Source: Nemertoderma westbladi (taxonomy: Eukaryota > Animalia > Xenacoelomorpha). From it: a stretch of 64,000 nt of DNA. Shown in pieces: positions 77 through 29,652 of the stretch (position 1 is its first letter; every line of letters starts with the position of its first letter). The DNA lies in the NCBI GenBank assembly GCA_032718475.1, contig JAUCBJ010006694.1, forward strand, positions 29,167-93,166, in the 5' to 3' direction. The translations under genes and the position numbers were made by a program. Below the pieces are notes generated by a model, which was not told the origin of the DNA, did no database searches, and saw only the letters and a program-made list of their open reading frames with translations.

Positions 77-87
77 ATAACAGTCAT
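77..87 (+). promoter_or_regulatory. Putative primer-binding site, complementary to an LTR-internal 11-mer (self-priming type)
   Basis: ATAACAGTCAT directly abuts the LTR-terminal CA, has no TGG, and is the exact reverse complement of ATGACTGTTAT at 9948-9958 and 30563-30573. Confidence 0.7.
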
Positions 88-354
88 TGACTTTATTGCA
101 GTAAGCAATAAAGTTGAAAGTACCGGTCAAAACCGGTACTTCTGTAGGTCTGTAGGCAGGTAGGCCCAACTGTCCTAACCGGTACTTCCAGTATAAGTAC
201 ATTAGTATTATTTCGATTGTGATCTATAGTATATTGTAGGCTACCAGAGGAATAGGGATTGATCACCCCTCATTCTTTTGTATAGTTTACTTATTTCTGT
301 CAGTTTTATTTCCTAGTAAGTTAATATTGAGCTGAAGACGTGTAAGTCTGCTCA

Positions 355-935
355 GATTGTTCAGATAATTGTAGGCCAGACTGTTGTCGGATTGTTGTTG
401 AGTTTGGAGAGATTACGGCGTGTGTAGAGTTTGTCTGATAGAGTGCCGTTAGTAAGTTGGGGCAGCCATATGCTGCAAGGTCAATCCCCTCTTAAAGAAT
501 AAGTCGTACTACCGTGTTAGAACGCATACTAACTAACTATTTCAGAATCTGCATATACTGTAGTTTATTTAGGCTTGATCGTAGTCTGCCAACGTTTTGG
601 CCTGTGTTTGTTTGTGTGGTCTGTTCAGGTACCGTAATAGTTATTGCTCAGATATTTTGTAGGCTGGATTGTTGTCTAGCTATTATTAGGTCTGAAGAGA
701 TTGCTGCTTGTGTAGAGTTGTCTGATAAAGTGCCAGTTAGTAAGTTGGGGTAGTCATAACTGTAAGGTCAATCCCCTCTTAAAGAATAAGTCGTACTACC
801 GTGTTAGAACGCATACTAACTAACCGTTTTGGAATCTGCACATACAGTAGTTTATTTAGGCTTGGTGGTAGTCTGCCAGCGTTTTGGTTTGTATTTGTTT
901 GAGTATTCTGTACGGGTAGCGTAATATTTATTATT
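355..935 (+). repeat. Diverged tandem duplication (~287-bp unit, 2 copies) in the 5' leader of element A
   Basis: TCAATCCCCTCTTAAAGAATAAGTCGTACTACCGTGTTAGAACGCATACTAACTAAC occurs at 481 and 768, with similar flanks. Confidence 0.85.
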
Positions 936-1864
936 CAGAGTTTATGCGATTATTCGCAACATTCATGTCCCCAAGTTTATTCCTACAGTAATTGTGCTTG
1001 TTATACATACCGTTATAGTTAAACTAACCCCGGTACTACATCAGGGCTGCTCGGCGTAGGTAAAGACTGGAGATTTTGTGCTTCGGTCACTCCAGCAGAT
1101 GCCGTGGTTCTTTTAACCATAGTATATTTAACTACTGATTATTTGTTATACCGGTACTTGTACCTAATTTAGGGTTTAGTGTACAGTGCTTTCCGAAGTA
1201 ATTAGTGTAGGCAGTATATTTGTGTTGTAAAGTGGTTGATAGGCACATTCGTTAGCTCTATTAGCTTCTGGGTAGGAACAATCCGTGATACATAACGTAG
1301 TACCTATAGCGATACGGTTATAGGTCGTCAGGCGGTGGTATTTTCCTATCTGGACAGTACAATATATTTACTACTACTTATTATTTCAAATACCGTAGTA
1401 CCCTGTCCGTTGTAATAACCAGAATTCTAACCCTTTGTTAGGCTGGTTTGTAGACTTCCTGTAAAATTACCCTAAAAATTTCGTACGTAATATTTTGTTG
1501 TGTTTAATTAGAGAATTAATCTCACCCGTATCGTAAGTAATTTGTAGTATTAAGTAACTTAGGTAAATTAGAATTATCAGTTTTAGTGTCAAATAAATAG
1601 CACTTCACTGAGAGGCGTTCAGCTTCTGTGTAGTGACTCCCCCAGAAATAATAACATTTATTTCAAATATTGACAAAAAACCCATTTAAACGGGTATATA
1701 TCTATTATAAATCAACTCAAACGATTTATAAATAGTAGGCCTGCCAGACAACAACTAGGTCTCAATATCAGTTGGACTGCTGCTTAAATAACGGTAATAA
1801 AGTAAGTTAAAGTAACCAAGTAACCCTAAAAATATTCAGAAATTCAATTATTCTAAAATAATTG

Positions 1865-2110
1865 ACATACCGGTATTTACCATAGGCTTATTATATTTAT
1901 TTCTATAAATTTGAGCTGAAATCATACCGGTATTCTGTAATTAATTCTAGTAATAATTATACTTATATATACTATAAGTGTCAGCTGTATACCGGTATTC
2001 ACGATAGGCCTATTATATATTTATATATTTGTGCTAAAATTATATACCGGTACTCTGTGACAAATCTAGTCTGTAATAGTACTTATATATATATTATAAG
2101 CATACCGGTA
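1865..2110 (+). repeat. ~120-bp tandem repeat (~60-bp sub-period) with TACCGGTA palindromes
   Basis: TACCGGTA at 1868, 1925, 1990, 2045 and 2103 with repeated intervening sequence. Confidence 0.75.
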
Positions 2111-2247
2111 TTTTAATATATTATATATATATCACGCTACACTGAGTAGCAGTATCGGTAATTAATTATTAGGCTAACAGTGATACTGAATTACTAGACT
2201 TGCTTTAACTGTAATATAGCAGTGGGCATTCGACTGTACAATCAAAC

Positions 2248-3918
2248 ATGGCTGACACAAGGCAAACTCTGTCAGATAGTCTTTTAGAAACAACAGCCTG
2301 TTTCTCAGATCAAAGTGTAGAGAATCCCAGACCGAGGTCTGAGACCCCTCCTACTGTAAGAAGGGCAACCCCTGCAGTAGTTGTGTCAGAACCTAGGTTG
2401 GTAGAAGCGATTTCGCAATTTGCGAAGTTAGTGAAGCGCCGTAGGTCTGCCATAGGCACTCGGGCCCAAGTTAAGCGGGATCAGGAAGCAGCTGTCAAAC
2501 AGCAGCGACATCCTAGCCAAGAACCTAGTTCCCAGCAGCCCGATAGCTCCAGTAGTTCGGAGACTGTTGAGCGGACGCCCGAACGCGGAGCGAAGATGGC
2601 GGATACGGTTTATGATGAGCGGCCAACCTTTGAAGAATCAACCGACGCCACTTCTTCTCAAGTGGAAAGCGAAGTGGAAAGCGAAGTGGAAAGCCAAGTG
2701 GAAAGCGAAGTGGAAAGTGAAGTGGAAAGCGAATTAACAGCAGCAGAGAAGCCACGAACTAGAGATGCCATTGACATCTATCTGTCAGACTATCAGCGAT
2801 TCGTAGGAGACGAAGAGTTGAGGAGACGACTGTCTGGACTTCGCCCTAATAGTGAAGGAACCAAGCTTGTGTTAGACGCAATCGATGCGGAAATGTTAGC
2901 TGCAAACAAAGCTAAATTTGATGAACAACTCCGCATCACTAGAGTCCAAGAAGAACAAGTAAGGGGAAAACTAATCGAAAGCAGAAAGACAGCAGCAGCG
3001 GCAGTGGCAGAAGCAGACAGAAAGGCGGCAGAAGCAATGGCAGAAGCAGACAGAAAGGCGGCAGAAGCAATAGCAGAAGCAGACAGAAAAGCGGCAGCGG
3101 CAGTGGAAGCAGCAAAAGCAGCAGCAGCAATGGCATTGGCAGAAGCAGAACAGAGAGCGTCTGAAGAGACCACCCAAATGGAGTTGGAAAATCTTCAAGA
3201 GACGCAAGACAGCATAAATAAACAGTTAACTGCTAGTCAAATGCAGATGATGAGTCGATCTACTCCCAAACGCCAAGGATACACATCATCGGAGGAAGGC
3301 GAGACCACCGATCCTGAAGGCAGAGGAAATAGATCTCGTCTCAGTAGGCGTAGAAAGACATCTCACCGTCATAAATTGCCCGATTTGCCCCCCGCTGTTA
3401 GAAGACAAATAGCTAGCACAGACTTAAGTAGTACAGAACCCACAGACCAAATTATTACCGTAAATAGACTCCCTACTATAGTAGATGAGCCTGAAATAAT
3501 TAGGCCTGTCGTTCCCAAAGTCACTTCTGTGTTAGAGACCCCTGTACTTCCAGAGCTTAACTCTAAATTCCCTTTACATAGTACTACACTGCCTGTACCC
3601 GGTGGAACAGTCCAAGAGAATATCCCTGTCCAGATAGCAGAGAGAGAAATCAATAATTTGTCTCCCGTCGTCCCGCGTCAGCCCGCTACTATGTTGGCGA
3701 CTCCCGCTTCGGCGGTTGAGTGGGTGGAAGAGGGACGGCGGGGGATGAATCTCCTGCTAGGACAGATGCAGGAGACTGTCCACCAACTTAAGGGAACAGT
3801 GAGGGAAGGTAGAGCAGAGTTGCAAGAAGTGCAGCAAAGTATCGCGCTAGAACGCGATAAATTAGTCAATATCCAAAAGGGCATACCAATACCCCCTGTA
3901 ACACCTGTAACCCTGTAA
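2248..3918 (+). CDS. gag: Bel/Pao Gag N-terminal part (coiled-coil, low complexity), element A; frameshifted from the downstream ORF
   Basis: Collinear with the in-frame Gag of copy C; 12-bp (VESE) and 33-bp (AEADRKAAEA) coding repeats; frame broken by a CCTGTAAC repeat expansion at ~3893-3938. Confidence 0.8.
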   Translation: MADTRQTLSDSLLETTACFSDQSVENPRPRSETPPTVRRATPAVVVSEPRLVEAISQFAKLVKRRRSAIGTRAQVKRDQEAAVKQQRHPSQEPSSQQPDSSSSSETVERTPERGAKMADTVYDERPTFEESTDATSSQVESEVESEVESQVESEVESEVESELTAAEKPRTRDAIDIYLSDYQRFVGDEELRRRLSGLRPNSEGTKLVLDAIDAEMLAANKAKFDEQLRITRVQEEQVRGKLIESRKTAAAAVAEADRKAAEAMAEADRKAAEAIAEADRKAAAAVEAAKAAAAMALAEAEQRASEETTQMELENLQETQDSINKQLTASQMQMMSRSTPKRQGYTSSEEGETTDPEGRGNRSRLSRRRKTSHRHKLPDLPPAVRRQIASTDLSSTEPTDQIITVNRLPTIVDEPEIIRPVVPKVTSVLETPVLPELNSKFPLHSTTLPVPGGTVQENIPVQIAEREINNLSPVVPRQPATMLATPASAVEWVEEGRRGMNLLLGQMQETVHQLKGTVREGRAELQEVQQSIALERDKLVNIQKGIPIPPVTPVTL

Positions 3919-3965
3919 CCCCCCTGTAACCCCCTGTTAGGTCTGAAGTATTACATGCGCAAGGT

Positions 3966-6461
3966 GTGGAGCCTACACGCATCTATACTGCTAGTGAAGT
4001 TGAAACTCCTATAGCAAACTCTATTAAGGGTGATTATAGACCTGTTATTAATGATATTCCCTATAGACCTGATAATGATCCGAGAAATTTATATACCGAT
4101 AATTCGATATTAAATAACACGATGGCCCAAGAAAGCTTTACGCGTCAGATGGCTAGAACAGAAGCCCGCCAAGCGGTCAAAGTGGGAGAGATCGTCAAAT
4201 TCAATGGAGATGAGATGAAATGGTTACCTTTCAACGAATATTACAAAGATAGCATACAGAACTCTGTACTATCTAACGGAGAGAAACTTAGATTCCTCAT
4301 CAAGTGCTTGGAAGGACCTCCCAAGTTAATGGCGTTAAAGTTTATTGGACATCCAGATGGATTAAGACAAGTTTGGGATACATTAAACATCAGGTATGGT
4401 AACAAGGATAACATAGCTAAGTATTTGTATGCAAAATTAGTAGCCCCCCGACACTTCCTTAGTAGCGGGATTATAGAGTTTTCCGATGAGATTCAGGAAA
4501 TCTGTAGACAATTGGACTGGTTAGGTAAGTCTCATGAATATCAGAGTTCCATGGTTATTGGAGCCGTAGTCTCTACTTTACCAAAGGGTGGAGTATGTAC
4601 GCGCTGGGACAAGAAAGTGTTGTACATGAATGAACAACAACAACGAAGTCCTACCATGGCTGATCTCATGTCTTTCTTAGATAGTGAAGTAAAATTACAA
4701 CTCATAAGGCAGTCCAGAGAGAAAACATCGGAAAATAAGGTAAGTGAGAAACCCGTTTCTAGGAGAAGGATAATACCAGTGTGTTATACTGACGACGGCG
4801 AAAGCCAAGCTTCTCAAGAAGAGGACAGCGGGAAAGACACAGCAAATTCTTACTATGACAACAAGAACTATAAAGACGTAAGTAAACACAAGTCTCGAAC
4901 CAGTGACAGGAGAGAACAGGTAACAACAACTCCTCCTACGTCTCCTAAGAGAATTCACGGAAGAAAGCCCGAAGAAAGAACGAGAGTGCAGAACGTTAAC
5001 CAAGTTAAGGTGAGTAACATCAAACCAAAATGTGCGCTGTGCGACGGGCCCCACCGTTTGAGTGCGTGTGCAGAATTCCTAAAGAAATCCATGGCAGATA
5101 GACGTGGAGTCCTGTGGGATAAGCGGTTATGTTATAACTGTCTCAGACGCGGACACCAGCGGCGAACCTGTTACTCTGACGCAAGGTGTGCTAAGTGCGG
5201 CGCGAAACATCATAGCTTGTTGCACACGGAATTCGAACGAAACAGCCCGAGTCAGGTAAGTGAGCCCAAATCACATGTCCAATTCAGTGATGTGAACGAC
5301 ACTGACCAAAGTTCTGAGTGGGAAGGATTCTATACGGACGAATTCTCCGATGCCAACGAATCCTGTTATCTAATAAATACCGCAGTGTATCGAGCACTTA
5401 CTTACGAAAAGGACATCAACGATGAGTTTCCCCCAACTACTTTCGCCAAACAACCATCTTGGAAAGCTCCAGCTTCCAACGTAGGAATCAGAGAATTTCC
5501 TGTAGTTCAAGTAAGAGTTCACGGTCTTAACAAAAGCTACATAGTGAACGCCCTCCTTGACTCCGGCAGCACAGGAACATTCATCGATCAAGAACTAGCC
5601 GAAGATATCTTTGCTGGACAACCCAAGTTCCGGACTAAATTGAATATGTCAGGAATTATGCAGGTTTGGAAATCTACCCTAACGGTAGATTACTATGTAG
5701 GTGTGTTGTCCACCCCCCAGGATAAGTTAGGAACACAAGGTATAAGGTCAGTAAAAATGGTGGCCATAAAGAACTTTGCTACTACTCAAGCAGAACCTTA
5801 TAACTGGGACGAGGACGAGTGCATCCAACATCTTGAGATACCTCGATTCCAAACCGATTATCCTGGAGTGCAAATCCTCATCGGCCAAAACGCGCATGAG
5901 GCGCTCGAGACATTGGAGAAACGGCCTGCTCAACCGCAGCCATTACAAACTTATGCGGTAAGAACTAGAGTAGGTTGGTACTTCACTGGCCCTTCCCGTA
6001 GAACTCTCAAAGAGAGATTACCTCAACAACAGGTATACCAAGTAAAGGGGGAAGTGGAGAGCAGTGATGTGGACGATCCAACTGAGGGAACACCATACTC
6101 CTCAGATAATGACGATATTAACTCCAATGTAGATCAATGGAGACATTGCCTTGGGACGATTAATCCAGCCGACATCGATTCCAGAGGAGCAACTCCTCAA
6201 GAACTGATAGATACTCCAGGCTGGTTAGGTGGATCCGACTCCTTAAGTAAGGAAGAAGAAGAATGGCCTCCTCATCTTACCACGGCAGAAATTAGACAGG
6301 CCAAGGGAGCGGAGAAAGTAACACAACAACTCAATCGCCCAGCTAGTCGTTTATGTTTACTGGAAAGAGACCGAAAACTGTCCGGAAACTATGGAAGGCA
6401 AGATACTCTTCCTACGACTACTTCCCTAATCCGACAAATATCTAGGGACTCCATAACGTGA
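3966..6461 (+). CDS. Bel/Pao Gag (DUF1759-like, 3 zinc knuckles) + aspartic protease, fused in frame to RNase H and integrase C-terminal remnants
   Basis: FNGDEMKWLPF; CALCDGPH..C, CYNCLRRGH..C, CAKCGAKHHSLLH; protease LLDSGS; in-frame deletions at ~6120 and ~6320 relative to copies B and C. Confidence 0.9.
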   Translation: MEPTRIYTASEVETPIANSIKGDYRPVINDIPYRPDNDPRNLYTDNSILNNTMAQESFTRQMARTEARQAVKVGEIVKFNGDEMKWLPFNEYYKDSIQNSVLSNGEKLRFLIKCLEGPPKLMALKFIGHPDGLRQVWDTLNIRYGNKDNIAKYLYAKLVAPRHFLSSGIIEFSDEIQEICRQLDWLGKSHEYQSSMVIGAVVSTLPKGGVCTRWDKKVLYMNEQQQRSPTMADLMSFLDSEVKLQLIRQSREKTSENKVSEKPVSRRRIIPVCYTDDGESQASQEEDSGKDTANSYYDNKNYKDVSKHKSRTSDRREQVTTTPPTSPKRIHGRKPEERTRVQNVNQVKVSNIKPKCALCDGPHRLSACAEFLKKSMADRRGVLWDKRLCYNCLRRGHQRRTCYSDARCAKCGAKHHSLLHTEFERNSPSQVSEPKSHVQFSDVNDTDQSSEWEGFYTDEFSDANESCYLINTAVYRALTYEKDINDEFPPTTFAKQPSWKAPASNVGIREFPVVQVRVHGLNKSYIVNALLDSGSTGTFIDQELAEDIFAGQPKFRTKLNMSGIMQVWKSTLTVDYYVGVLSTPQDKLGTQGIRSVKMVAIKNFATTQAEPYNWDEDECIQHLEIPRFQTDYPGVQILIGQNAHEALETLEKRPAQPQPLQTYAVRTRVGWYFTGPSRRTLKERLPQQQVYQVKGEVESSDVDDPTEGTPYSSDNDDINSNVDQWRHCLGTINPADIDSRGATPQELIDTPGWLGGSDSLSKEEEEWPPHLTTAEIRQAKGAEKVTQQLNRPASRLCLLERDRKLSGNYGRQDTLPTTTSLIRQISRDSIT

Positions 6462-6982
6462 TAGCATGTGGAGTGGGCGTGTGACTATATCATTTTATAT
6501 TTGTTTTTATTTTATATTTATGTATGTATTATTATGTAATTTTATTATAATCGTTTTCTTTAATTTTATTTAGTAGAATGTTATTTTAGAGATTATTTAG
6601 TAGATTAGTGCAATATATTAGTGTTTATTACGTATGTAATTACTTATAATATATATTTAGTGCGACGGCGAGAAATAATTATTTTTCTCTTTCCTTACTG
6701 TCCGTATCATATTATAAATACGTGACTACAGTAAGATGAAATGTCCGTACTTATTAAAGTACAATAAAGCCGCTACTATATTTAAGTATTATTGGTAGGC
6801 AGAGTATTAGGAATGCAAAGTTCAGATCCTCGTGTCTCGGCTAAACCAAGCTCTGTGTAGACCTTGGAAACGACTTGCCTCTTCACACTGACATTGCTTC
6901 GTGCGATATTGCTCTTCTACCTTATAACAAATAATACATATAGTAGCGTGATGTCCCTCTAACAGTAGCGTAGATCGCAAAT

Positions 6983-7300
6983 AAATCTGTTAAACCTTTT
7001 GACCATCTGTAATTCTAGTCGATTAAGATATCGCGGCACCCACCGATATACTTGAAAGACAAATTCTAGAATCAGTGGTTAACGTCCCCAGACAAGTTCT
7101 GGAATAAATCGGTGCCCATCTTAAATATTAATTTAATATTTATTAAAATCTGTAAAATTCAGATCCTTTAAAATTTCTAGTCAATTAAGATATCGCAGCA
7201 CTTACCGATACTCTTAAAAGACAATTTTATAGAATTAAGGATCCTAAGTCCCCAGACATGCTCTGGAATAAAAATTGTGTCAAATTTAACATCAAATAAT
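6983..7300 (+). repeat. Tandem ~163-bp duplicated unit in the pol-ORF3 spacer, kept in copies A, B, C and D
   Basis: TTCTAGTC(G/A)ATTAAGATATCGC...CCCAGACA...CTGGAATAAA occurs twice (from ~7013 and ~7175); also at ~15100-15365, ~28020-28280 and ~57060-57330. Confidence 0.8.
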
Positions 7301-8089
7301 AAAATTCACGGGAATAAATTTAAATTCATATTTTAAATTAATTTCATAAATTGTCATTTTGTGCAATTTATAACATTCTCAAAATTCCATTAATTAATAG
7401 ATCATGGGAGCGGAGATTCATCCTATTGAGTGTATTAGAGTGCGAGAATCTCCAACATATAGTCAATAGCCGATAAAATTAATAAAATCATGTATAAAGA
7501 GGATATTGACAATTAAAGAATTACTATTAAATAGCATTCCAGATCTGTATGCATGAGAATTACCCTAATTCTACCGCTAGCATTCCATAATGTCACCATA
7601 GCAACACCCACGCTAGAATTAGAAGCAAGTTAAGAAAACAATAGAAAGCTTGTCACATTGCATAGCATAGAGAATATAGCACACTGTTAGTATCCAAGGA
7701 TACACAGTAATAACGTGACATTCTGGAAGGCACTGACTAACGGACAAATGGCCTGTATGTGTACAATTGGTGACAGTTGTGTGGAATTTGTGCGTTTATA
7801 GGTGAATGTTACTGCTAAGGTGTGTTTACAGTAGCTAGTCGCAATTGTGAAAGTAACCCAACTCTCCTATAGAAAGAACCTAAAGTGGATTCAAGCCTTT
7901 GGGACGGACAGTGGAGTGACTTGTGCCGGTTATCGTTGTCGTACTGTTGCTACATGTTGGCGTAAACACCGCGACAACGGTACATCGGCGCTGAGGATCC
8001 CACTGTCCGGGGGCAAAGAGAGGTAGGCAGCGACGTCCGCTCGCCTAAACATAAACTCATTTCGATATTAACAAACTCAGATAGCAGAT

Positions 8090-9368
8090 ATGACGGAGTT
8101 GATAGAAGATGATCTTGGTATCAGGGAGCGATATACTCTACCTTTACAAGCATTTGTGGATAGCTTGATACGCGGTGAAACCGATCCAACCATTACGGAG
8201 GACGATGGTCGTTATATCGAACTGCCGACGTCCCAAGAGCAACTTATGCGTGAATTGGACTATCGAAAATTCACCGCTCGCTATACGCATCGTAATAATA
8301 CGTATATGGACCTCCTAACTACCGGCCATCCTATCGATTTACATGATACGGACGATGTAGACACCGAAAGGGAAATGGTTCTATTTAAATATCATACCCA
8401 GCGGCGTCGTAACGATAAATCGAGAATAGATCACGAAAATTCTATTCGTAACAGACTGGGAAGACGAACCAATATGCCTAGAATCTGAGGAGATTCAGCC
8501 TATCGCGCTCGGAACAGCGACAACGATTACATCCTGGAATGGTATCAAGGTCCACTGCGTACGATTATCGCCATGACAACTGTGTTTCTCGGCAACGTTG
8601 TCGGTTATGCGCATCGAGAGACCATGTTACGCCCATGGACACAGACGTCCGCTGTTCCTATTTCCACGAACAACCGGCGATGGAAATTTATTGCGCGTAT
8701 TGCAGATTTAATGATTTGCACGTTTTTGCGGTTTGCCCTCAATTTGTGACTCAATGTCACCATTGTCAACTGGGGGGACACGCCAGTTTCGATTGCCCTT
8801 TTAATCGCAATTTGGAGGGCGTGGATGAAATGATCACACTACGTTACATTAGAGCTTGGGAAGCGAAGGCTGATTTACATCGTGATTCGCGCCATCGCTA
8901 TTATCCTGGACGCGCTTACGAAGGAATTTATGCGTTCCATTCTTATCTATTCGCTTCTGTCGAACAGAAATCACGCATATCGAGTTACAGGAAGTATATC
9001 GACGGCCTTACGAGTACAGAGCCCGCAAATGCGAGTTGGAAAGAACCATTAAACCAAGGAAGTTTCTAACTGCCTATGGTCCACCCACGGCCCTCGTTCA
9101 GACCACTCGTAAAGGACCCGTAAGAGCGGCTGTCTTGAAACGAGCTCTCAAAGCCGTTAGACCCCTCTCACCTGACGTTGATGTCAATCAACCCGGTACT
9201 TCGACTGGCGGATACACCGACCATAATCCTACACCCTCTGATGCAATCATATTGCACCCTTCACCCAGGAGTTATAGCCCTCCTTGTAAAGTGGCTCGCC
9301 CCAAAGAGAAAGGGACTCTGGCTAGCTTTAAAAAACTGCGTAAACGCCGTCCGCGCAAGAAAGACTAA
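8090..9368 (+). pseudogene. 3' accessory ORF region of element A (frameshifted and deleted relative to B and C)
   Basis: ORFs 8090-8488, 8539-9069 and 9036-9368 match pieces of the B/C ORFs; 8-bp deletion near 8553 and a deletion between two GAGTTAC copies at ~8985. Confidence 0.75.
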
Positions 9369-9446
9369 CTGTTTAGAGTATTTACGTATATTAGAAACTG
9401 TGATTTTGTATATTTCATAGACTCAAATCCCATTTTCTGGGAGCGG

Positions 9447-10704
9447 TGTAAAAGCTTCTGTGGGATATAACTGGCCCCTTTGCTTCGCAATCCAGTTTCC
9501 CCCCAGGCGCTGGAATACTCTAAAAGGGTTCTCTAACTGTATATATATTCCCCTCGCCCGCAAGGTACCGTTACAGGTGTTTTAACGGACATAAAAGTCA
9601 TTCTGTTATATACGTGTTTTAGCGGACATGGTAAGGCAAAAAACCTGCAATGCACCAAATACCTTTCACAGCTTAGCCGTGATGATTCACATTACGACAT
9701 CTAACAGCTGGTTGCTGACATGGAAACAGCCATTGGACGCATGGTTCTTTGTTTGGCTTGAGCCAATCAGAGCGTTTTTTCCTGTCGACGTGTAGCTTTT
9801 CGGCCGATCATAAGGAGAGTGTTCAGTCTTACTGTTTTTTACTTGATACTTTGTTGTTATTGCTGTCTAAGCCAGAAACACCGGCTCTAGAGTTAATTCT
9901 TTTCATACTTTAAGAAGAAACATTAGTAGGCTTAAATTATAGAGCGTATGACTGTTATCAGTCAAATCCATTCACAATTCAATACTTTGTTGTTATTACT
10001 GTTCAACATACATTATTATACTGCTATTTACTGTTGTGTTTGGTTGAATATTATTTGGAGAACATATATAAAGAACCCAAATTTCCCAATTTTCTTGATA
10101 CACTACAGGTTAGAGAGACGGGTTATATATATAGCGATTGCGACTTATATTGTTGTGGTTTGTAGTGAATTTAATGCTATTTGATAAGCACTACATTGGT
10201 CCGTTGCTGTTCCCTTTATATATGATAAAATTCATTGACGGTCGGCAAATTAGTGAGCAGTATTGTGTGTTACCGGTAGTGTGCATGATTGTGATTGATA
10301 ACTAAGCATTTCCTAAAGAATGCGCCTCATACGTGAATCTTAAGCCTTACCGACTTACCGTTGTGATTAGTGTAAGTCATATCTCTGTTTACCTAGATAG
10401 AGCGCCACGTCCTAAAGGAACTGTTAATATTTCCCGAAAGTAAATAATATTAGTCAGAAATTAATTATTAACGATCAATCGAATAATACAATACCGTAAG
10501 CTTCACTGCAATAATAATTTAAGCCCTCAGAATCCAGTCTCCCGGGATTATCCAGCGGGTGAATGGACGCGCACTAGGCTGGCTTCTGCTAATGTTGTGT
10601 TTGTTGGTATTAAATATTTGTCATCTTCTAAAGTATATTTATAAACCAAAAGACATATAAATTTTGGCAGGTTAAACTGCTAAAGGTCTTCAAAAGCACG
10701 TACA
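9447..10704 (+). repeat. 3' LTR of element A (1258 bp)
   Basis: Starts TGTAAAAGC after the PPT and ends TACA; CCAAT box AGCCAATCAG at ~9761; homologous to 42909-44061 and 53438-54603. Confidence 0.9.
10090..10704 (+). ncRNA. Putative large conserved RNA structure in R-U5 of the LTR
   Basis: Conserved blocks with variable-length hairpin inserts and compensatory changes among three diverged LTRs (see findings). Confidence 0.55.
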
Positions 10705-11293
10705 ATAACAGTCATACGCTCTATAATTTAAGCCTACTAATGTTTCTTCTAAAAGTATGAAATGAATTGACTCTAGAGCCGTTGTTTCTGGCCTAGACAG
10801 CAATAACAACAAAGTATCAAGAAAAAACAGTAAGACTGAACACTCTCCCTATGATCGACCGAAAAGCTACACGTCGACAGGAAAAATCGCTCTGATTGGT
10901 TCAAGCCAAACAAAGAACCATGCGTCCAATGGCTGTTTCCATGTCAGCAACCAGCTGTTAGATGTCGTAATATGAATCATCACGGCTAAGCTATGAAAGG
11001 TATTTGTCGCATTGCAGGTTTTTTGTCTTACCATGTCCGCTAAAACACGTATATAGCAGAATGACTTTTATGTCCGTTAAAACACCTGTAACGGTACCTT
11101 GAGGGCGAGGGGAATATTTATACAGTTAGAGAACCTTTTTAGAGTATTCCAGCGCCTGGGGGGAAACTGGATTGCGAAGCAAAGGGGCCAGTTATATCCC
11201 ACAGAAGCTTTTACACCGCTCCCAGAAAATGGGATTTGAGTCTATAAAATATACAAAATCACAGTTTCTAATATACGTAAATACTCTAAACAG

Positions 11294-12187
11294 TTAGTCT
11301 TTCTTGCGCGGACGGCGTTTACGCAGTTTTTTAAAGCTAGCAAGAGTCCTTTTCTCTTTGGAGCGAGCCACTTTACAAGGAGGGCTATAACTCCTGGGTG
11401 AAGGGTGCAATATGATTGCATCAGAGGGTGTAGGATTATGGTCGGTGTATCCGCCAGTCGAAGTACCGGGTTGATTGACATCAACGTCAGGTGAGAGGGG
11501 TCTAACGGCTTTGAGAGCTCGTTTCAAGACAGCCGCTCTTACGGGTCCTTTACGAGTGGTCTGAACGAGGGCCGTGGGTGGACCATAGGCAGTTAGAAAC
11601 TTCCGGGGTTTAATGGTCCTTTCCAACTCGCGTTCGCGGGCTCGGTATTCGTAAGGCCTTCGATGTACTTCCTGCAACTCGGGATGTGAGTTAACAAACA
11701 AGTCTCCATAGTCCGGATCCTGACGGATATAATTGATTAAGTTATAGGAATGAAGGTCGCTAGGATTAACACTCCTGAGAAATTTGCGTACGAATTTAGT
11801 TGAAATACATTCTCCGACGCGCTTCAGTAGCTCGTAACTCGATATGCGTGATTTCTGTTCAACAGAAGCGAATAGATAAGGATGGAACGCATAAACTCCT
11901 TCGTAAGCGCGTCCGGGATAATAGCGATGGCGCGAATCACAATGTAAATCAGCGTTCGCTTCCCAAGCTCTGATGTAACGTAGTGTGATCATTTCATCTA
12001 CGCTTTCCAAATCGTGATTAAAAGGGCAATCGAAACTGGCGTGTCCCTTTAGTTGACAATGGTGACATTGAGTCATAAATTGAGGGCAAACCGCAAAAAC
12101 GTGCAAATTATTAAATCTGCAATACGCGCAATAAATTTCCATCGCCGGTTGTTCGTGGAAATAGGAACAGCGGACGTTTGTGTCCAT
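11294..12187 (-). CDS. Accessory zinc-knuckle protein (CCHC array, basic NLS-like C-terminus), element B
   Basis: CAYCRFNNLHVFAVC and CHHCQLKGHASFDC (Cx2Cx4Hx4C); C-terminal KKLRKRRPRKKD; open frame extends upstream to the TGA at 12344-12346. Confidence 0.65.
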   Translation of the reverse strand: MDTNVRCSYFHEQPAMEIYCAYCRFNNLHVFAVCPQFMTQCHHCQLKGHASFDCPFNHDLESVDEMITLRYIRAWEANADLHCDSRHRYYPGRAYEGVYAFHPYLFASVEQKSRISSYELLKRVGECISTKFVRKFLRSVNPSDLHSYNLINYIRQDPDYGDLFVNSHPELQEVHRRPYEYRARERELERTIKPRKFLTAYGPPTALVQTTRKGPVRAAVLKRALKAVRPLSPDVDVNQPGTSTGGYTDHNPTPSDAIILHPSPRSYSPPCKVARSKEKRTLASFKKLRKRRPRKKD

Positions 12188-12343
12188 GGGCGTAACATGG
12201 TCTCTCGATGCGCATAACCGACAACGTTGCCGAGAAACATAGTTGGCATGGCGATAATTGTACGCAGTGAGACACTGTGGACCTTGATACCATTCTAGGA
12301 TATAATCGTTGTCGCTGTTCCGGGCGCGATAGGCTGAATCTCC

Positions 12344-12742
12344 TCAGATTCTAGGCATATTGGTTCGTCTTCCCAGTCTGTTACGAATAGAATTTTCGTG
12401 ATCTATTTTCGGTTTATCGTTACGACTCCGCTGGGTATGATATTTAAATAGAACCATTTCCCTTTCGGTGTCTACATCGTCCGTATCATGTAAATCGATA
12501 GGATGGCCGGTAGTTAGGAAGTCCATATACGTACCATTACGATGCGTATAGCGAGCGGTGAATTTTCGATAGTCCAATTCACGCGCAAGTTGCTCTTGGG
12601 ACATCGGCGGTTCGATATAACGACCATCGTCCTCCGTAATGGTTGGATCGGCTTCACCGCGTATTAAGCTATCCACAAATGCTTGTAAAGGTAGAGTATA
12701 TCGCTCCCTAATACCAAGATCATCTTCTATTAACTCCGTCAT
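12344..12742 (-). CDS. Accessory ORF3 N-terminal part (132 aa, unknown function), element B
   Basis: Start MTELIEDDLGIRERY conserved in all four copies (MIELIEDD in D). Confidence 0.6.
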   Translation of the reverse strand: MTELIEDDLGIRERYTLPLQAFVDSLIRGEADPTITEDDGRYIEPPMSQEQLARELDYRKFTARYTHRNGTYMDFLTTGHPIDLHDTDDVDTEREMVLFKYHTQRSRNDKPKIDHENSIRNRLGRRTNMPRI

Positions 12743-13203
12743 ATCTGCTATCTGAGTTTATTAATATCAAATAAGTTTGTATTTAGGCGAGCGGGCGTCG
12801 CTGCCTACTTTTCTTTGCCCCCGGACAGTGGGATTCTCAGCGCCGATGTACCGTCGTCGCGGTGTTTACGCCAACATGTAGCAACAGCACGACAACGATA
12901 ACCGGCACAAGTCACTCCACTGTCCGTCCCAAAGGCTTGGATCCACTTAGGTTCTTTCTATAGGAGAGTTGGGCTATTTTTACAATTGCGACTAGCTACT
13001 GTAAACATACTTTAGCAGTAACATTCACCTATAAACGCACAAATTCCACACAACTGTCAACAACTGCACACACACAGGCCATTTGTCCGTTAGTCAGTGC
13101 CTTCCAGAATGTCACTTTATTACTGTGTATCCTTGGATACTAACAGTGTGCTATGTATTCTCTATGCTAGGCAATGGGACAAGCTTTCTATTGTTCTTTT
13201 AAC

Positions 13204-14739
13204 GTTCGCGCTATTCATTAATGATTTAGAGGCGGAACTACGGGATGGAGGAATTCAGGGCCTGGATGTAGGTGCGCTCAAACTTTTCCTGTTACTTTAT
13301 GCTGATGATATCGTGTTGGTTAGTGAAAGTATTAGTGGACTACAGGGTGCACTCGATATCCTTGGTTGCTATGCCGACTATTGGGGTTTGCGGGTTAACA
13401 TGGACAAGTCCAATATTATGATTTTTAAAAACGGTGGGAATCTTGCACAGCGTGAACGGTGGACTTTCCACAATCGTGAACTCAAAATTGTCTCTGACTA
13501 TACTTACCTAGGAGTAATATTTTCTCCCTCTGGCGGATTCAGGAAAGCGGAGTGTTCTCTTGCAGAGAAGGCCTCTAAAGCATATTTTGTACTCTTAAAA
13601 TATTTTTCGAAATTCCCAAACATTTCACTGAGCTTAAAAGTTCATATCTTCAATACACTTGTGAAACCGATCCTGGAATATGGAAGTGAAATCTGGGGTT
13701 TCCACAGCGCTCCAGAGTGCGAACGAGTTCAACTTAAATTTCTAAAACGGTTATTGGGGGTAAAGTCAGGAACACCTAACTTCATGAGTTATGGTGAAAC
13801 TGGAGTATTCCCGCTAGCATTGTCTAGGGAAATTCGTATAGTAAAATATTGGATTAAAATTATTAATTTACCAGACTCGCGTTTAGTCAAGCAGGCGTAT
13901 CTTATGCTACTTCAGGACTGTCTGACTTTCAATGACAGTAACTGGGTTTCTGGTGTGCGCGATCTGCTTAATAAGTCTGGTAAAAGTTGGGCGTGGGTCA
14001 ACCAGTCGGTCAGCTGTAATAAAATGTTTATTAAATCTCTAGAACGTACATTACAGGATAACTTCATCCAGTCTTGGTGGAGTGCGATAGAAAATTCTCC
14101 CAAGGGAATTTGGTATTTCAAGAGGGTGTTTGGGGCAGAAAACTACTTAAACTCACTTAGTGGTTACCCTACACTGTGTAAGACTGTGAGCCGCCTAAGG
14201 TGTTCCTCACACGATCTACAATTTGAATACGGACGTTGGCATAATGTACCGCGTAACGATAGATTATGCCAGCTCTGTAACCTCCAAGAAGTGGAGGATG
14301 AATACCACTTTGTACTTAAATGTCCGCTCTATCATGATCTACGCATTAAATTTTTGGCAGTAAGATATCATAGAAATCCTTCATCGGTCAAATTTCTTGA
14401 ACTCCTCAGTCTGACGTCGGATTCCAAAATTAAGCAGTTTGGTGTGTTTTTATATCACGCCTTTAAATTACGACTGGAGGCTAAAACCTAGTTAGTACGT
14501 ATTACGTGTGTTGAATGTTTGTGGTGTGAGTATGTGTTGGTAGTTCTTCGGTTTAGGTTGTTATTATGTAGATATAATATATATTATGTTCCTACTTTAC
14601 GCACTGGGTTCACCTATGTATTTCTTTTCTAAATGTATTTGTACTCCGGTATTGTAGCGTGCAGTTGATACTACATACTTTGCTCTCAACAATAGCCTTA
14701 ATTGGCTTGTTGTGATTAACAATAAACATTATAACATTA
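13204..14739 (+). mobile_element. 5'-truncated non-LTR retrotransposon (RT C-terminal half; RTEX-like) inserted in element B
   Basis: LLYADDIVL, YLGV, C-terminal RLCQLC...EDEYHF..C; coding to 14491; AATAAA plus short AACATTAT tail; TSD TTTAAC at 13198-13203 and 14740-14745. Confidence 0.85.
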
Positions 14740-15907
14740 TTTAACTTGTTTCTAATTCTAGCGTGGGTGTTGCTATGGTGACATTATGGAATGCTAGCGG
14801 TAGAATTAGGGTAATTCTCATGCATACAGATCTGGGATGCTATTTAGTAATAATTCTTTAATTGTCAATATCCTCTTTATGCATGATTTTGTTAATTTTA
14901 TCGGCTATTGACTATATGTTGGAGATTCTCGCACTCTAATACACTCAATAGGATGAATCTCCGCTCCCATGATCTATTAATTAATAGAATTTTGGGAATG
15001 TTATAAATTGTACAAAATGACAATTTATGAAATTCATTTAAAATATGAATTTAAATTTATTCCCGTGAATTTTATTATTTGATGTTAAAATTGACACAAT
15101 TTGATTCCAGAGCAGGTCTGGGGACATAGGATCCTTAATTCTATGAAATTTGTCTTTTAAGAGTATCGGGAAGTGCTACGATATCTTAATCGACTAGAAT
15201 TGTTAACGGATCCGAATTTTACAGATTTTAATAAATATTAAGTTAATATTTAAGATAGGCACCGATTTATTCCAGAACTTGTCTGGGGACGTTAACCACT
15301 GATTCTAGAATTTGTCTTTCAAGTATATCGGTGGGTGCCGCGATATCTTAATCGACTAGAATTACAGATGGTCAAAAAGTTTAACAGATTTATTTGCGTT
15401 TTACGCTACTGTTAGAGGGACATCACGCTACTATATGTATTATTTAATATAAGGTAGAAGAGCAATATCGCACGAAGCAATGTCAGTGTGAAGAGGCAAG
15501 TCGTTTCCAAGGTCTACCCAGAGCTTGGCTTAGCCGAGACACGAGGATCTGAACTTTGCATTCCTAATACTCTGCCTACCAATAATACTTGAATATAGTA
15601 GTGGCTTTATTGTACTTTAAGAAGTACGGACATTTCATCTTACTGTAGTCACGTATTTATAATATGATACTGACAGTAAGAAAAGAGAAAAAATTATTTC
15701 TCGCCGTCGCACTAAATATATATTATAAGTAATTACGTACGTAATAAACACTAATATATTGCACTAATCTACTAAATAATACTAAAATAACATTCTACTA
15801 AATAAAATTGAATAAAAACGATTATAATAAAGTACATAATAAAGTTCGCATGTAAAAATATAATAAAATAGATAAAACAATATAGTCATACACCCACTCC
15901 AGACGTA

Positions 15908-18900
15908 TCACGTTAGGGAGTCCCTAGATGTTTGAGGAATTAGGGAGGTGGTCGTGGGAAGAGTGTCTTGCCTTCCATAGTTTCCAGAGAGTTCCCTGTC
16001 TCTTTCCAGTAAACATAAACGACCAACTGGGCGATTGAGTTGTTGCGTCTCAAAGATGATGCCTGGTTTCTTGAAGTTACGCCGCATGACGATGAGTTCT
16101 ACTGAGCGTACTAAACCATCATCTGAAATGTGTGTCTCGATGATACGACCTGTCTGCCACCGTTTACGTGGGAGGTCTGGATCTACAATAAGCACCATAT
16201 CTCCGGCGCTGACGTTTTCTTGCTGCGCAAACCACTTAGTTCGAAGTTGTAGCGTGGGCAGATAATGTTTCTCGAAATGGTCAGCGAAACGACGGGATAG
16301 CAACTGCATAAGTTGCCAAGTTCGATGGCAGTATTCGTCTCCGTCGGCAATCTCCGATCGTGGGAGCATGGCTACGGGTTTCTTCAGTAGGAAGTGCGCG
16401 GGTGTTAGCGCTTCCAGGGAATTGGGACTCGATGAGACTGGCATAAGCGGTCTCTCGTTGAGATAGGCAGCGATTTCCTCCATTAACGTCCGCAAAAGTT
16501 CGTCGGTGAGATACGCGCGGCATGGCACTATAAAGTGAAATGCGGTTTTGACACTTCGAATTAATCTCTCCCAACTTCCTCCCCACCAAGGGGCGTCGGC
16601 AGCGTTGAAGGTCCAGCTAGACGCTGTTATCCTTAGCTGGTCGTCCACCTGTGTTTGGTTCCAGTCCTTCACGTAAGCCTGTATCTCGTTGTTGGCACCT
16701 ATGAAGTTCGTTCCTTTATCCGATCTCATGGTATTACTTGTCCCGAAGCGAGCGATCTGTCGTCGTAAACTTAAGACGAAGCTGTTAGTAGATAGATCGT
16801 TCACCATATCGAGATGGATGGCTCTACAAGTCATGCACACGAAAATGACACACCATCTCTTGACTATAGTCCTCGCACGATATACTTCAATAGGGCCAAA
16901 TAAATCTACACCAGTATTAGTAAAAGGTGGTTCATAGAAGCTTACTCGTTCCCTAGGTAATTCTGCCTCTCGCTGTGTTAAAGGCCTACTGAATGCTTTC
17001 CTACAGGGTATGCAGTTCCTAAGAACTTGGTTCAGAGCTCTACGGGGTTTATCAAAATAATAGCGAGTTCGAATTTCGCTAAGAATTCGTTCTCTACCAG
17101 CATGGTAAAGTTTACCGTGAACGTCTACAATCATCTTGATTTGTACTTCAAGATTTCTAATAAGTATGGGGAATTTGGTGTCAAAGGATAAGGGCGCGTT
17201 GGTGAGTCTTCCTCCAACACGTATTAACCCATCTATCATTGTGCTCGAGAATCGATCCCTTAAGCGCATCTGTGGATTTCTCAACAACAGGAAGTACTTT
17301 TCGGAATCCTCATAGCATTGCAGGAGTCTCAGTATCTGTTTATTTGTTTCTTCATACTCCTGGTGACTAATTTTCTCTTTTAGAAAATGATCAGATATCT
17401 TATATTTGGGTAAATTCTTAATAACATGAACTTGTGCAGATGTCAATGGAGCGTGATCACTAATGGTCTTCGTCCTGGAGTAGTGATGATGAAAACATCG
17501 TCTTAAATATGTGACGGCTTTACAGAGCCGATTCCAGGAACTGTAATGATGCATTGCTCTCTGCAGCATGGGTGAGATTCCTTGCGAGACGTCTGGTATT
17601 CCAGATTTCCAATCTCTATCTCTAATTTCCACAACAGACTTATTTGTGTTGAGGGATTGTGGATCCGAAACATCATTCCCGGAAGTGTGTAATACTGATA
17701 GATCGATAGTCGGTTTAAATAACTTCGATTTACTCGCCCGGGTTTTAGGTTTGACGGTCTCCGCTCCCTTGGCTTGTCTAATCTCTGCCGTAGTAAGGTG
17801 AGGAGGCCATTCATCCTCTTCCTTGCTCAGGAAGTCGGGTCCACCCAACCAATCTGGAGTATCTATCAGTTCCTGTGGAGTTGCTCCCCTGGAGGCGATA
17901 TCGGCTGGATTAATCGTACCAGGGCAATGTCTCCATTGATCTATCTTTGTGCGACTAAGAATAATAGCTACTCGGTTAGTAACAAAAACGCTAAACTGAC
18001 AGACTTCATTGGTGAGATACTCCAACACGAGTAAAGCGTCGGTCCAATAAACCGTTTTCTCCAGTGGATAGTCGATTTGTTCCGTTACGTTCCGGCCGAT
18101 GGCTGTAGCGTATAAAGCCGCCTTTAACTCCGCTCGAGGAACCTTTAACTTGTTGTTAATCAATGCCTTAGAGGTAACCAAGGCGACCTTGATTCCATCC
18201 GGAGTTTCGACTCGCAGATATGCTACTATACCTATTCCCATATCGCTGGCGTCTCCAAACACATGGAGTTGATAAGAATACTTAGGAAGAACATGGCCAA
18301 AATATGCATGGGAAATTATAAAGTTCTCGATGGCAGGTAGAGAATCTTCCCATTTCATCCATTTCTTCAACAATTCTCCCTTAAGCGGATCGTCCCATGA
18401 GTGGTTTTCAAGCCACATCTGTTGTACTAAACTCCGAGCAATCAATATAACTGGGCTAATAAATCCCAATGGGTCGAAATAAGTGCTCAGGATACTTAAA
18501 CAAATCCGTTTGGTCCGAACTGGATTATCTCGCTGTTTCAACTGAAAAAACAGGATGTCTCTTTCAGTGTCCCACTTCAAGCCTAGCGTCTTGGTTTCAG
18601 GAAGATCGTCCTTTATTAAGTCTAGATCTTTCGCTCCGCGGTCTTCTACCGGTATCGCTTCCAGAAACTCACGGGAGTTGCTAGTGAATTTCGTCAGTCG
18701 AAATCCACCTCTTTTCAAACACTCTACCGTTCCTTTCGCGACAGCTATGGCTTCTTCTACTGATGGAAGGGACCTTAAATTGTCGTCCATGTATATATTG
18801 CGTTTTATGTTGTCTATCACTTCTTTGGAGAAGGAGTCTCGGTTATCATTCGCAGTGGTTCGCACCACGGAGCAGGCGTTGGAAGGGCTTGATATGATCC

Positions 18901-19135
18901 CAAAAGCCTGGATGGTCATCCAGTACTCTACCGGTTTCTGGTTGAGGTCTCCTTCAGGCCACCACAGAAATCTCAGGCTATCTCTATCTCTATCCAGCGC
19001 CTTGACTTGTAAGAACATTCCTTCTATATCAGAGGCGAACGCGATGGAATATTGTCTTAATCTTAATAGTATTCCCAACAAAGATTGGAGTAAGTTGGGT
19101 CCTGGTAACAACTCGGAATTGAGGGATTGGCCCAT
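15908..19135 (-). CDS. pol: Bel/Pao Pol (RT-RNase H-integrase), N-terminally truncated, element B
   Basis: DIEGMFLQV, YMDD, VFGDASDMG, WTDA, NPADIASRG, H..H..CIPC, GVDLFGP, SDKGTNF, PWWGGSWERL. Confidence 0.95.
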   Translation of the reverse strand: MGQSLNSELLPGPNLLQSLLGILLRLRQYSIAFASDIEGMFLQVKALDRDRDSLRFLWWPEGDLNQKPVEYWMTIQAFGIISSPSNACSVVRTTANDNRDSFSKEVIDNIKRNIYMDDNLRSLPSVEEAIAVAKGTVECLKRGGFRLTKFTSNSREFLEAIPVEDRGAKDLDLIKDDLPETKTLGLKWDTERDILFFQLKQRDNPVRTKRICLSILSTYFDPLGFISPVILIARSLVQQMWLENHSWDDPLKGELLKKWMKWEDSLPAIENFIISHAYFGHVLPKYSYQLHVFGDASDMGIGIVAYLRVETPDGIKVALVTSKALINNKLKVPRAELKAALYATAIGRNVTEQIDYPLEKTVYWTDALLVLEYLTNEVCQFSVFVTNRVAIILSRTKIDQWRHCPGTINPADIASRGATPQELIDTPDWLGGPDFLSKEEDEWPPHLTTAEIRQAKGAETVKPKTRASKSKLFKPTIDLSVLHTSGNDVSDPQSLNTNKSVVEIRDRDWKSGIPDVSQGISPMLQRAMHHYSSWNRLCKAVTYLRRCFHHHYSRTKTISDHAPLTSAQVHVIKNLPKYKISDHFLKEKISHQEYEETNKQILRLLQCYEDSEKYFLLLRNPQMRLRDRFSSTMIDGLIRVGGRLTNAPLSFDTKFPILIRNLEVQIKMIVDVHGKLYHAGRERILSEIRTRYYFDKPRRALNQVLRNCIPCRKAFSRPLTQREAELPRERVSFYEPPFTNTGVDLFGPIEVYRARTIVKRWCVIFVCMTCRAIHLDMVNDLSTNSFVLSLRRQIARFGTSNTMRSDKGTNFIGANNEIQAYVKDWNQTQVDDQLRITASSWTFNAADAPWWGGSWERLIRSVKTAFHFIVPCRAYLTDELLRTLMEEIAAYLNERPLMPVSSSPNSLEALTPAHFLLKKPVAMLPRSEIADGDEYCHRTWQLMQLLSRRFADHFEKHYLPTLQLRTKWFAQQENVSAGDMVLIVDPDLPRKRWQTGRIIETHISDDGLVRSVELIVMRRNFKKPGIIFETQQLNRPVGRLCLLERDRELSGNYGRQDTLPTTTSLIPQTSRDSLT

Positions 19136-19169
19136 ATATAGAGCAGAGCCATCAAATACGACTCGTACT

Positions 19170-27471: not shown

Positions 27472-29097
27472 TACGTTTGGAGTGGGTGTATGACTATATT
27501 GTTTTATCTATTTTATTATATTTTTATATGCGAACTTTATTATGTACTTTATTATAATCGTTTTTATTCAATTTTATTTAGTAGAATGTTATTTTAGTGA
27601 TTATTTAGTAGATTAGTGCAATATATTAGTGTTTATTACGTACGTAATTACTTATAATATATATTTAGTGCGACGGCGAGAAAATAATTATTTTTCTCTT
27701 TCCTTACTGTCCGTATCATATTATAAATACGTGACTACAGTAAGATGAAATGTCCGTACTTATTAAAGTACAATAAAGCCACTACTATATTCAAGTATTA
27801 TTGGTAGGCAGAGTATTAGGAATGCAAAGTTCAGATCCTCGTGTCTCGGCTAAACCAAGCTCTGGGTAGACCTTGGAAACGACTTGCCTCTTCACACTGA
27901 CATTGCTTCGTGCGATATTGCTCTTCTATCTTATATTAAATAATACATATAGTAGCGTGATGTCCCTCTAACAGTAGCGTAAAACGCAAATTAATCTGTT
28001 AAACCTTTTGACCATCTGTAATTCTAGTCGATTAAGATATCGTGGCACCCACCGATATACTTGAAAGACAAATTCTAGAATCAGTGGTTAACGTCCCCAG
28101 ACAAGTTCTGGAATAAATCGGTGCCCATCTTAAATATTAATGTAATATTTATTAAAATCTGTAAAATTCAGATCCGTTAACAATTCTAGTCGATTAAGAT
28201 ATCGTAGCACTTCCCGATACTCTTAAAAGACAAATTTCATAGAATTAAGGATCCTATGTCCCCAGACCTGCTCTGGAATCAAATTGTGTCAATTTTAACA
28301 TCAAATAATAAAATTCACGGGAAAAAATTTAAATTCATATTTTTAAATGAATTTCATAAATTGTCATTTTGTACAATTTATAACATTCCCAAAATTCCAT
28401 TAATTACTAGATCATGGGAGCGGAGATTCATCCTGTTGAGTGTATTAGAGTGCGAGAATCTCCAACATATAGTCAATAGCCGATAAAATTAACAAAATCA
28501 TGCATAAAGAGGATATTGACAATTAAAGAATTATTATTAAATAGCATCCCAGATCTGTATGCATGAGAATTACCCTAATTCTACCGCTAGCATTCCATAA
28601 TGTCACCATAGCAACACCCACGCTAGAATTAGAAGCAAGTTAAAAGAACAATAGAAAGCTTGTCCCATTGCATAGCATAGAGAACATACCACACTGTTAG
28701 TATCCAAGGATACACAGTAATAACGTGACATTCTGGAAGGCACTGACTAACGGACAAATGGCCTGTGTGTGTGCAGTTGTTGACAGTTGTGTGGAATTTG
28801 TGCGTTTATAGGTGAATGTTACTGCTAAAGTATGTTTACAGTAGCTAGTCACAATTGTAAAAATAGCCCAACTCTCCTATAGAAAGAACCTAAGTGGATC
28901 CAAGCCTTTGGGACGGACAGTGGAGTGACTTGTGCCGGTTATCGTTGTCGTGCTGTTGCTACATGTTGGCGTAAACACCGCAACGACGGTACATCGGCGC
29001 TGAGAATCCCACTGTCCGGGGGCAAAGAAAAGTAGGCAGCGACGCCCGCTTGCCTAAATACAAACTTATTTGATATTAATAAACTCAGAAAGCAGAT

Positions 29098-29496
29098 ATG
29101 ACGGAGTTAATAGAAGATGATCTCGGTATTAGGGAGCGATATACTCTACCTTTACAAGCATTTGTGGATAGCTTAATACGCGGTGAAGCCGATCCAACCA
29201 TTACGGAGGACGATGGTCGTTATATCGAACCGCCGATGTCCCAAGAGCAACTTGCGCGTGAATTGGACTATCGAAAATTCACCACTCGCTATACGAATCG
29301 TAATGGTACGTATATGGACTTCCTAACGACCGGCCATCCTATCGATTTACATGATACGGACGATGTAGACACCGAAAGGGAAATGGTTCTATTTAAATAT
29401 CATACCCAGCGGAGTCGGAACGATAAACCGAGAATAGATCACGAAAATTATATTCGTAACAGACTGGGAAGACGAACCAATATGCCTAGAATCTGA
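29098..29496 (+). CDS. Accessory ORF3 N-terminal part, element C
   Basis: Nearly identical to 12344-12742. Confidence 0.6.
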   Translation: MTELIEDDLGIRERYTLPLQAFVDSLIRGEADPTITEDDGRYIEPPMSQEQLARELDYRKFTTRYTNRNGTYMDFLTTGHPIDLHDTDDVDTEREMVLFKYHTQRSRNDKPRIDHENYIRNRLGRRTNMPRI

Positions 29497-29652
29497 GGAG
29501 ATTCAGCCTATCGCGCCCGGAACAGCGACAACGATTACATCCTAGAATGGTATCAAGGTCCACAGTGTCTCACTGCGTACAATTATCGCCATGCCAACTA
29601 TGTTTCTCGGCAACGTTGTCGGTTATGCGCATCGAGAGACCATGTTACGCCC

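Follow-up and report, generated by a model that had tools for sequence, protein, structure and literature searches.

The Locus and Its Retrotransposons

The 64,000-nt stretch of DNA analysed here (the window) contains a BEL/Pao family in four copies, named A to D, together with a solo LTR, S. Their main features are:

Up to 10704, plus strand: copy A, with the end of its 5' LTR (1-76) at the window start
88-2247, plus strand: AUG-poor leader before gag, 2160 nt
8072-9368, plus strand: accessory ORF region of A, between integrase and LTR in the family layout
9447-10704, plus strand: 3' LTR of A, TG...CA, 1258 nt, preceded by a purine-rich tract
10705-19169, minus strand: copy B, inverted, abutting the LTR end of A
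11294-12757, minus strand: accessory ORF region of B, 3' of integrase, with zinc knuckles and a basic tail
Up to 31339, plus strand: copy C
29083-30588, plus strand: accessory ORF region of C
42909-44061, minus strand: solo LTR S, which begins with TG and ends with CA
53438-60520, minus strand: copy D, with its LTR at 53438-54603
55096-56241, minus strand: accessory ORF region of D

The LTR ends could be fixed because S has TG and CA termini and is flanked by a 5-bp target duplication. Across the family the LTRs measure 1153-1258 nt; they are thus long, yet inside the published BEL/Pao range, with a median of 383 and a maximum of 2427 in the available part of the source (PMC3118150). A Gag with DUF1759, a Pao peptidase A17/RNase H, an integrase with DUF5641, the TG...CA LTRs, and the short target duplication place the family in BEL/Pao; the polyprotein of Ty3/gypsy elements (Tf1/sushi clade) was not found, all domains being those of BEL/Pao. 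The nearest database proteins share 36-38% identity across most of the query, the named matches coming from marine invertebrates and fish, and in the protein tree the element sits on a long branch. Copies A (2215-8988) and D (53438-60520) are internal-deletion derivatives in which gag-protease is kept and most of RT, RNase H, and integrase is gone. From one sequencing run, 9925 contig pieces map to 9400-10704; depth is not copy number, and the pieces indicate a family that is highly repeated and diverse in the organism.

In B and C, the accessory ORF is interrupted by an in-frame stop at an identical position. No Pfam family and no homologue were found for it, and its Atlas matches to CCHC proteins are all sub-0.9. 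Within its N-terminal part, third codon positions differ most (29 vs. 13 and 9); judged from sequence comparison, this part is under purifying selection and evolves like gag.

Conserved Blocks in R-U5

The R-U5 portion of the LTR contains a set of conserved segments:

10090-10704, plus strand: conserved R-U5 region of copy A
30727-31339, plus strand: the same region of copy C
42909-43506, minus strand: the same region of solo LTR S
53438-54020, minus strand: the same region of copy D
10107-10115, 10173-10182, 10240-10247, 10304-10325, 10401-10441, 10472-10490, and 10664-10679, plus strand: seven invariant blocks in A

A first-pass annotation of this DNA had described a conserved, structured RNA domain of ~600 nt with near-invariant blocks, lying beside a U3 that can barely be aligned, and this observation is partly confirmed. 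All seven blocks were found and are common to A, C, S, and D, while U3 identity (55-62%) does not depart from that of shuffled sequence (56-60%), even though U3 retains short motifs such as a CCAAT box. The reported fourfold recurrence of CTAAAG in A was also recovered, and the motif occurs four times in each of C, S, and D as well, with about 0.2 expected per copy for a motif picked after the fact; GTGAAT is present two to four times per copy, again with about 0.2 expected. In copy D, sites of both motifs have been gained or have shifted, one of its four CTAAAG lying at a new place.

Among 568 gap-free columns of A, S, and D, invariant runs extend to 41 columns where permutations give 15.1, and runs of at least 8 take up 186 columns compared with 93.7 (0/20000 permutations in either case). 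The mean identity between lineages, however, is 77-79% (78.5% for A vs. D), equal to that of gag four-fold sites (193/249 identical between A and D, 77.5%); the blocks are thus constrained and the whole 600 nt is not, so that conservation, as first proposed, holds for the former and fails for the full length. Two sequencing runs gave 33 variant rows at 31 positions reaching 8%, and none of these 31 family-variable positions falls inside the 125 block positions (P about 9e-4), a test that is partly circular because S- and D-like alleles are among the variants.

A Putative Self-Primer

Two further features bear on how the element starts reverse transcription:

77-87, plus strand: PBS, directly after the 5' LTR end of A, without TGG
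9948-9958, plus strand: putative self-primer of 11 nt, fully complementary to the PBS

The match between 9948-9958 and 77-87 is complete (11/11; chance about 3e-4), and pairing would therefore loop out 746 nt, the span from primer to LTR end. It is the match of copy A, no PBS being visible in S or D; the window contains no tRNA gene. A PBS that has no TGG and is complementary to 11 nt of its own LTR is the arrangement of Tf1, Tf2, and Tj1. The Tf1 RNA pairs its first 11 bases with the PBS, and RNase H cleaves it between bases 11 and 12 (available text of PMC7175516 and PMC4600332). As far as those sources describe it, the Tf1 11-mer is formed by the first bases of the RNA, whereas here the 11-mer is known from the LTR sequence and its place at the 5' end of the RNA is putative. 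These sequence features make it probable that the element uses its own RNA to prime reverse transcription.

The boundary between B and A also bears on priming. The two copies meet exactly at the 11-mer, and the order there is LTR end, PBS 11-mer, and then inverted U3 and internal sequence running into pol, to 19169, and the U3 of B is 96.3% identical to that of A. The inversion of B probably records a strand transfer that went astray: plus-strand strong-stop DNA annealing to the 11-mer rather than to the minus-strand PBS would give such a junction. Since a long RNA primer ending at 9958, or recombination at 11 nt of microhomology, fits the same junction, it is consistent with self-priming and no proof of it. 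The RNase H motifs are intact in the open frame of B.

The conserved region had been placed exactly between primer and PBS; it does lie inside the loop, but starts about 130 nt past the 3' end of the primer, and this linker (56-66% identity) is at the level of shuffled sequence (56-60%). The unusual length ascribed to R-U5 is borne out, the 746 nt comparing with 62-216 nt in six relatives that have a self-priming signature. A full-text search, with most subscription journals outside its scope, turned up no publication describing BEL/Pao self-priming or a structured R-U5 in such elements, and the available parts of two papers on BEL/Pao (PMC554778; PMC3118150) mention neither primers nor tRNA.

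Predicted RNA Structure at the 3' End of the LTR

Folding and comparison among copies support a predicted RNA structure in the last ~200 nt of the LTR, composed of the following elements:

10505-10514, plus strand: U5 strand complementary to leader 93-102, with 10 Watson-Crick pairs and more past a bulge
10528-10588, plus strand: 12-bp stem with inner hairpin (10528-40:10576-88), showing one compensatory and two one-sided changes
10564-10572, plus strand: 5' strand of a predicted pseudoknot, in the loop of the 12-bp stem
10663-10684, plus strand: terminal U5 hairpin, in which two one-sided changes preserve pairing
10696-10704, plus strand: 3' strand of the predicted pseudoknot, formed by the final 9 nt of the LTR and adjoining the PBS in the 5' LTR transcript

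Folding z scores for 10520-10704 are -1.5, -2.3, and -3.8 on the sense strand, with no antisense signal, and for 10640-10704 they reach -3.2, -3.0, and -4.2 in sense against 0 to +1.2 in antisense. Five windows over 10080-10520 gave no z below -1.6, and the whole 9948-10715 stretch gave -1.59. A structured RNA of ~600 nt is thus upheld by folding and helices for 10520-10704, but not for the ~400 nt upstream.

In the 12-bp stem, the helix 10528-32:10584-88 extends into 10534-40:10576-82, and the two positions of its compensated pair, 10529 and 10587, also vary in two sequencing runs (11/17% and 25/33%, unphased). Because the helix 10567-72:10696-701 starts in the loop of this stem, a pseudoknot is predicted; with two more pairs it extends to the final base of the LTR, and two compensatory changes are seen among C, S, and D. 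A first covariation test (A, S, and D; G-U allowed; at least 4 pairs) was null, with 25 compensated helices against 23.1 +/- 5.0; its alignment misplaced the LTR end, where the 3' LTR of A carries a private change. A second test, with criteria set after the first result (C, S, and D; alignment A1; Watson-Crick helices of at least 5 pairs), found 3/8 helices compensated against 0.25 in column shuffles (2/400) and 4 compensated pairs against 0.26 (0/400), the helices being 10308-12:10457-61, 10528-32:10584-88, and 10567-72:10696-701. A measure including G-U pairs was not significant in the same test (p 0.145), the covariation term of the RNAalifold consensus was positive, and the comparative structure as a whole draws on three independent LTR lineages only. 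A model of 98 pairs had a good score but was set aside, having been fitted to the same sequences with one mis-registered helix; its central helices clash with the compensated 10308-12:10457-61 helix.

The complementarity between U5 and leader was equalled in 13/1000 shuffles, and none of 105 other leader 20-mers offers 10 pairs; by eye only, it seems to be extended at 10490 in other family members. The leader strand 93-101 also resembles a splice-acceptor site, which folding could mask. Since the U5-leader helix begins 5 nt past the PBS and the pseudoknot ends on the last LTR base, the primer:PBS duplex would be framed on both sides. Helices flanking this duplex are a trait of Tf1, in which RNA structure is needed for primer-PBS pairing (available text of PMC7175516 and PMC4600332); here they stand as a prediction.

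Relatives Beyond the Window

We collected 83 related loci with 30-46% identity, many of them contigs with only part of an LTR. Neither nhmmer nor blastn found the region in these loci beyond chance, and a covariance model of the 3' domain matched only the five copies of the window. Exact searches with core motifs gave 0 matches in metagenome contigs and 0 in viral contigs, the latter also holding no BEL/Pao relative. The R-U5 module is real and lineage-specific.

A PBS could be read in 12 distinct elements of the 83 loci (one false repeat, in L067, was left out), of which three have TGG and nine do not. In five (L005, L008, L018, L030, and L064), the PBS pairs over 10-15 nt with an exon junction in the element's own LTR, created by removal of a GTAAG...AG intron inside the LTR (0/40 shuffles each), and in L053 it has a contiguous 10-nt match to its own LTR; 3/9 non-TGG relatives show neither type of match. 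In the six elements with such a signature, the span from primer to LTR end lacks CTAAAG and GTGAAT, and helices like those predicted beside the duplex here are absent. Self-priming in the group thus does not need the domain, and the scaffold is not general. The expected co-occurrence of the domain with a lost tRNA PBS breaks down in one direction, since 0/9 relatives without a TGG site have it.

A Probable Priming Scaffold and a Possible Protein-Binding Module

We suggest, with somewhat better than even confidence, that in this probably self-primed BEL/Pao element the region works in cis as a noncatalytic RNA, acting as a priming scaffold and a protein-binding module. The primer at 9948-9958 would pair with the PBS across the loop of 746 nt, and the 12-bp stem, pseudoknot, terminal hairpin, and U5-leader helix would fold the last ~200 nt. 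On the model of Tf1, the RNase H of the element would then cut past the 11th paired base, and RT would extend the new 3'-OH. The interpretation originally put forward, in which the region scaffolds RT or generates the primer 3' end, is partly supported: a scaffold agrees with the 3' third, where predicted helices frame the PBS, but catalytic formation of the primer end is not supported by the data (see below). More tentatively, the upstream ~400 nt may be a protein-binding module of the unspliced genomic RNA. The bound protein could be Gag, in packaging or dimerisation, or, by analogy with other elements, the zinc-knuckle accessory protein, in export. Ribosomes would skip the region and scan the AUG-poor leader, through splicing, loading from a cap beside the leader, or internal entry.

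Two features of this upstream part stand out:

10107-10115, plus strand: invariant block with splice-donor-like AG|GTTAGA, donor candidate at 10109
10304-10461, plus strand: central module, two invariant CTAAAG blocks flanking a variable hairpin

The upstream ~400 nt starts at the splice-donor motif and carries the blocks with the strongest invariance, and AG|GTTAGA is the only donor-pattern match common to A, S, and D. The central module contains one compensated helix (10308-12:10457-61). A conserved upstream peptide from the AUG at 10174 was considered and rejected, changes being mostly nonsynonymous by eye and stop positions different. The leader has 4 AUGs against 36.3 expected, ATG being its most depleted trinucleotide, on the sense strand only; the depletion begins just past the PBS and is present in all five leader bins. 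The R-U5 region retains 6-7 AUGs per copy, several of them invariant, and AUG is also about halved there.

These AUGs are compatible with another reading, that the central and 5' blocks form an IRES or a shunt loading ribosomes onto the leader, on the view that the primer duplex engages the bases near the cap. The size of the region and its core-plus-periphery pattern fit what is generally held of such RNAs. Nevertheless, splicing at the 10109 donor motif, or a cap held near leader base 88, explains the AUGs equally, Rfam gave no IRES match, and the region is kept in nonautonomous copies without RT; we regard this reading as unlikely. A similarly low likelihood attaches to the central blocks being DNA elements (an internal promoter or enhancer with repeated transcription-factor sites), with only the 3' third acting as RNA. 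The missing folding signal upstream of 10520 and the gain and loss of sites among the repeated hexamers speak for it, as does family variation: 4/10 variant rows at modelled paired positions break a pair, all four in the central part. Yet an invariant run of 32-41 nt exceeds single factor sites, the central Watson-Crick helix is compensated, and U3 already has its CCAAT box. For the protein-binding module that we favor, short repeated motifs with turnover fit binding sites better than a single active site.

Is the Region Catalytic?

The suggestion that the domain might be catalytic is not supported. An Rfam scan of the window at the gathering threshold returned 0 matches. The Infernal/Rfam search that had been proposed as a check yielded nothing meaningful in A, S, or D even at E<=10, the weak matches, all far below cut-offs, being one miRNA in the U3 of A (E 0.32), one outside the LTR of S, and two in D (E 2.5 and 3.5). 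Strict patterns for the cores of hammerhead, HDV-like, twister, and pistol ribozymes were absent from the sense strand of all four copies, and the region could not be assigned to the small self-cleaving class (these four and hatchet); an HDV-like reading of 10532-10568 was discarded, as the remaining helices are missing. The earlier failure to recognise a group I/II intron or RNase P by eye agrees with both motif and Rfam scans, group I P7 and J8/7, group II domain V, and RNase P/MRP CR-I not being found.

A bolder version of the scaffold has a 600-nt RNA machine in which the pseudoknot clamps the self-primer on the PBS and which, alone or with the accessory protein, hydrolyses the RNA to yield the primer 3'-OH. 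Such a machine, if it exists, would represent a new class of large ribozyme, or of RNP nuclease, dedicated to reverse transcription; we hold it to be very improbable. Very improbable, too, is a new-class large ribozyme that hydrolyses the RNA after 9958 and leaves a 3'-OH for RT. It would account for the invariant single-stranded blocks, variable hairpins, and pseudoknot, and for the position in the primer-PBS loop; a long RNA primer with its end at 9958 would likewise suit the B/A junction, and a new class would be absent from Rfam. Small self-cleaving ribozymes, for their part, leave a cyclic phosphate, which cannot prime. Against catalysis stand the absence of any Rfam match or core motif, the lack of conservation over 130 nt past the would-be cut, the six relatives in which the domain is absent, and the intact RNase H motifs; from the last three in particular we put its likelihood very low. 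RNase H makes the same cut in Tf1 (available text of PMC7175516). Catalysis of the region is thus unsupported by its sequence. Finally, that R-U5 drifted neutrally and seems conserved only beside a fast-evolving or swapped U3 matches the regional identity at silent-site level, but is for the blocks largely refuted by their clumping, and is further opposed by their lack of variable positions and by the compensated helices, which makes it extremely improbable.

Comparison with Known Systems

Self-priming is already established for Tf1-like gypsy elements, and the present family extends a likely self-priming architecture to BEL/Pao. Tf1 belongs to the Tf1/sushi group of Ty3/gypsy, whereas the element here is BEL/Pao, with a looped-out R-U5 of 746 nt that has invariant blocks and a predicted pseudoknot, unlike Tf1. 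In this architecture the primer duplex, framed by the predicted pseudoknot and U5-leader helix, would close a loop whose length is three to twelve times that in relatives with a self-priming signature, and the element also has an accessory gene and a leader of 2.2 kb that is poor in AUG. A long-range pseudoknot beside the primer site recalls Ty1, whose pseudoknot is needed for reverse transcription (available text of PMC3592414). Ty1 is tRNA-primed, and its pseudoknot is formed by nucleotides 1-7 and gag sequence in the same account, whereas here both strands lie in the LTR.

For the putative protein-binding module, the available text of the sources offers three comparisons: the HTLV-1 Rex response element is a structured RNA in the LTR bound by an element-encoded protein (PMC12789967), the LTR retrotransposon Cer1 has an accessory protein, CERV, for export of unspliced RNA (PMC10309623), and long R regions show residual stem-loop conservation (PMC3601003). 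The likeness to the Rex and CERV systems is one of layout, and binding by the accessory ORF product, which is without known homologue, is suggested by this analogy. Retrozymes and other ribozyme-bearing retroelements, in the accounts available, likewise place an RNA element within a terminal repeat; theirs are small hammerhead, HDV-like, or twister motifs, none of which occurs in this family. With the present system, a short RNA construct could be used to study the positioning and cleavage of a self-primer, and the way in which such an RNA is divided between translation and packaging.

Besides this family, the window holds other mobile elements (13094-14491, 32447-35982, 41141-41920, and 45656-49552), comprising two LINE-like pieces with RT, a Penelope-like GIY-YIG fragment, and a second, distant BEL/Pao family.
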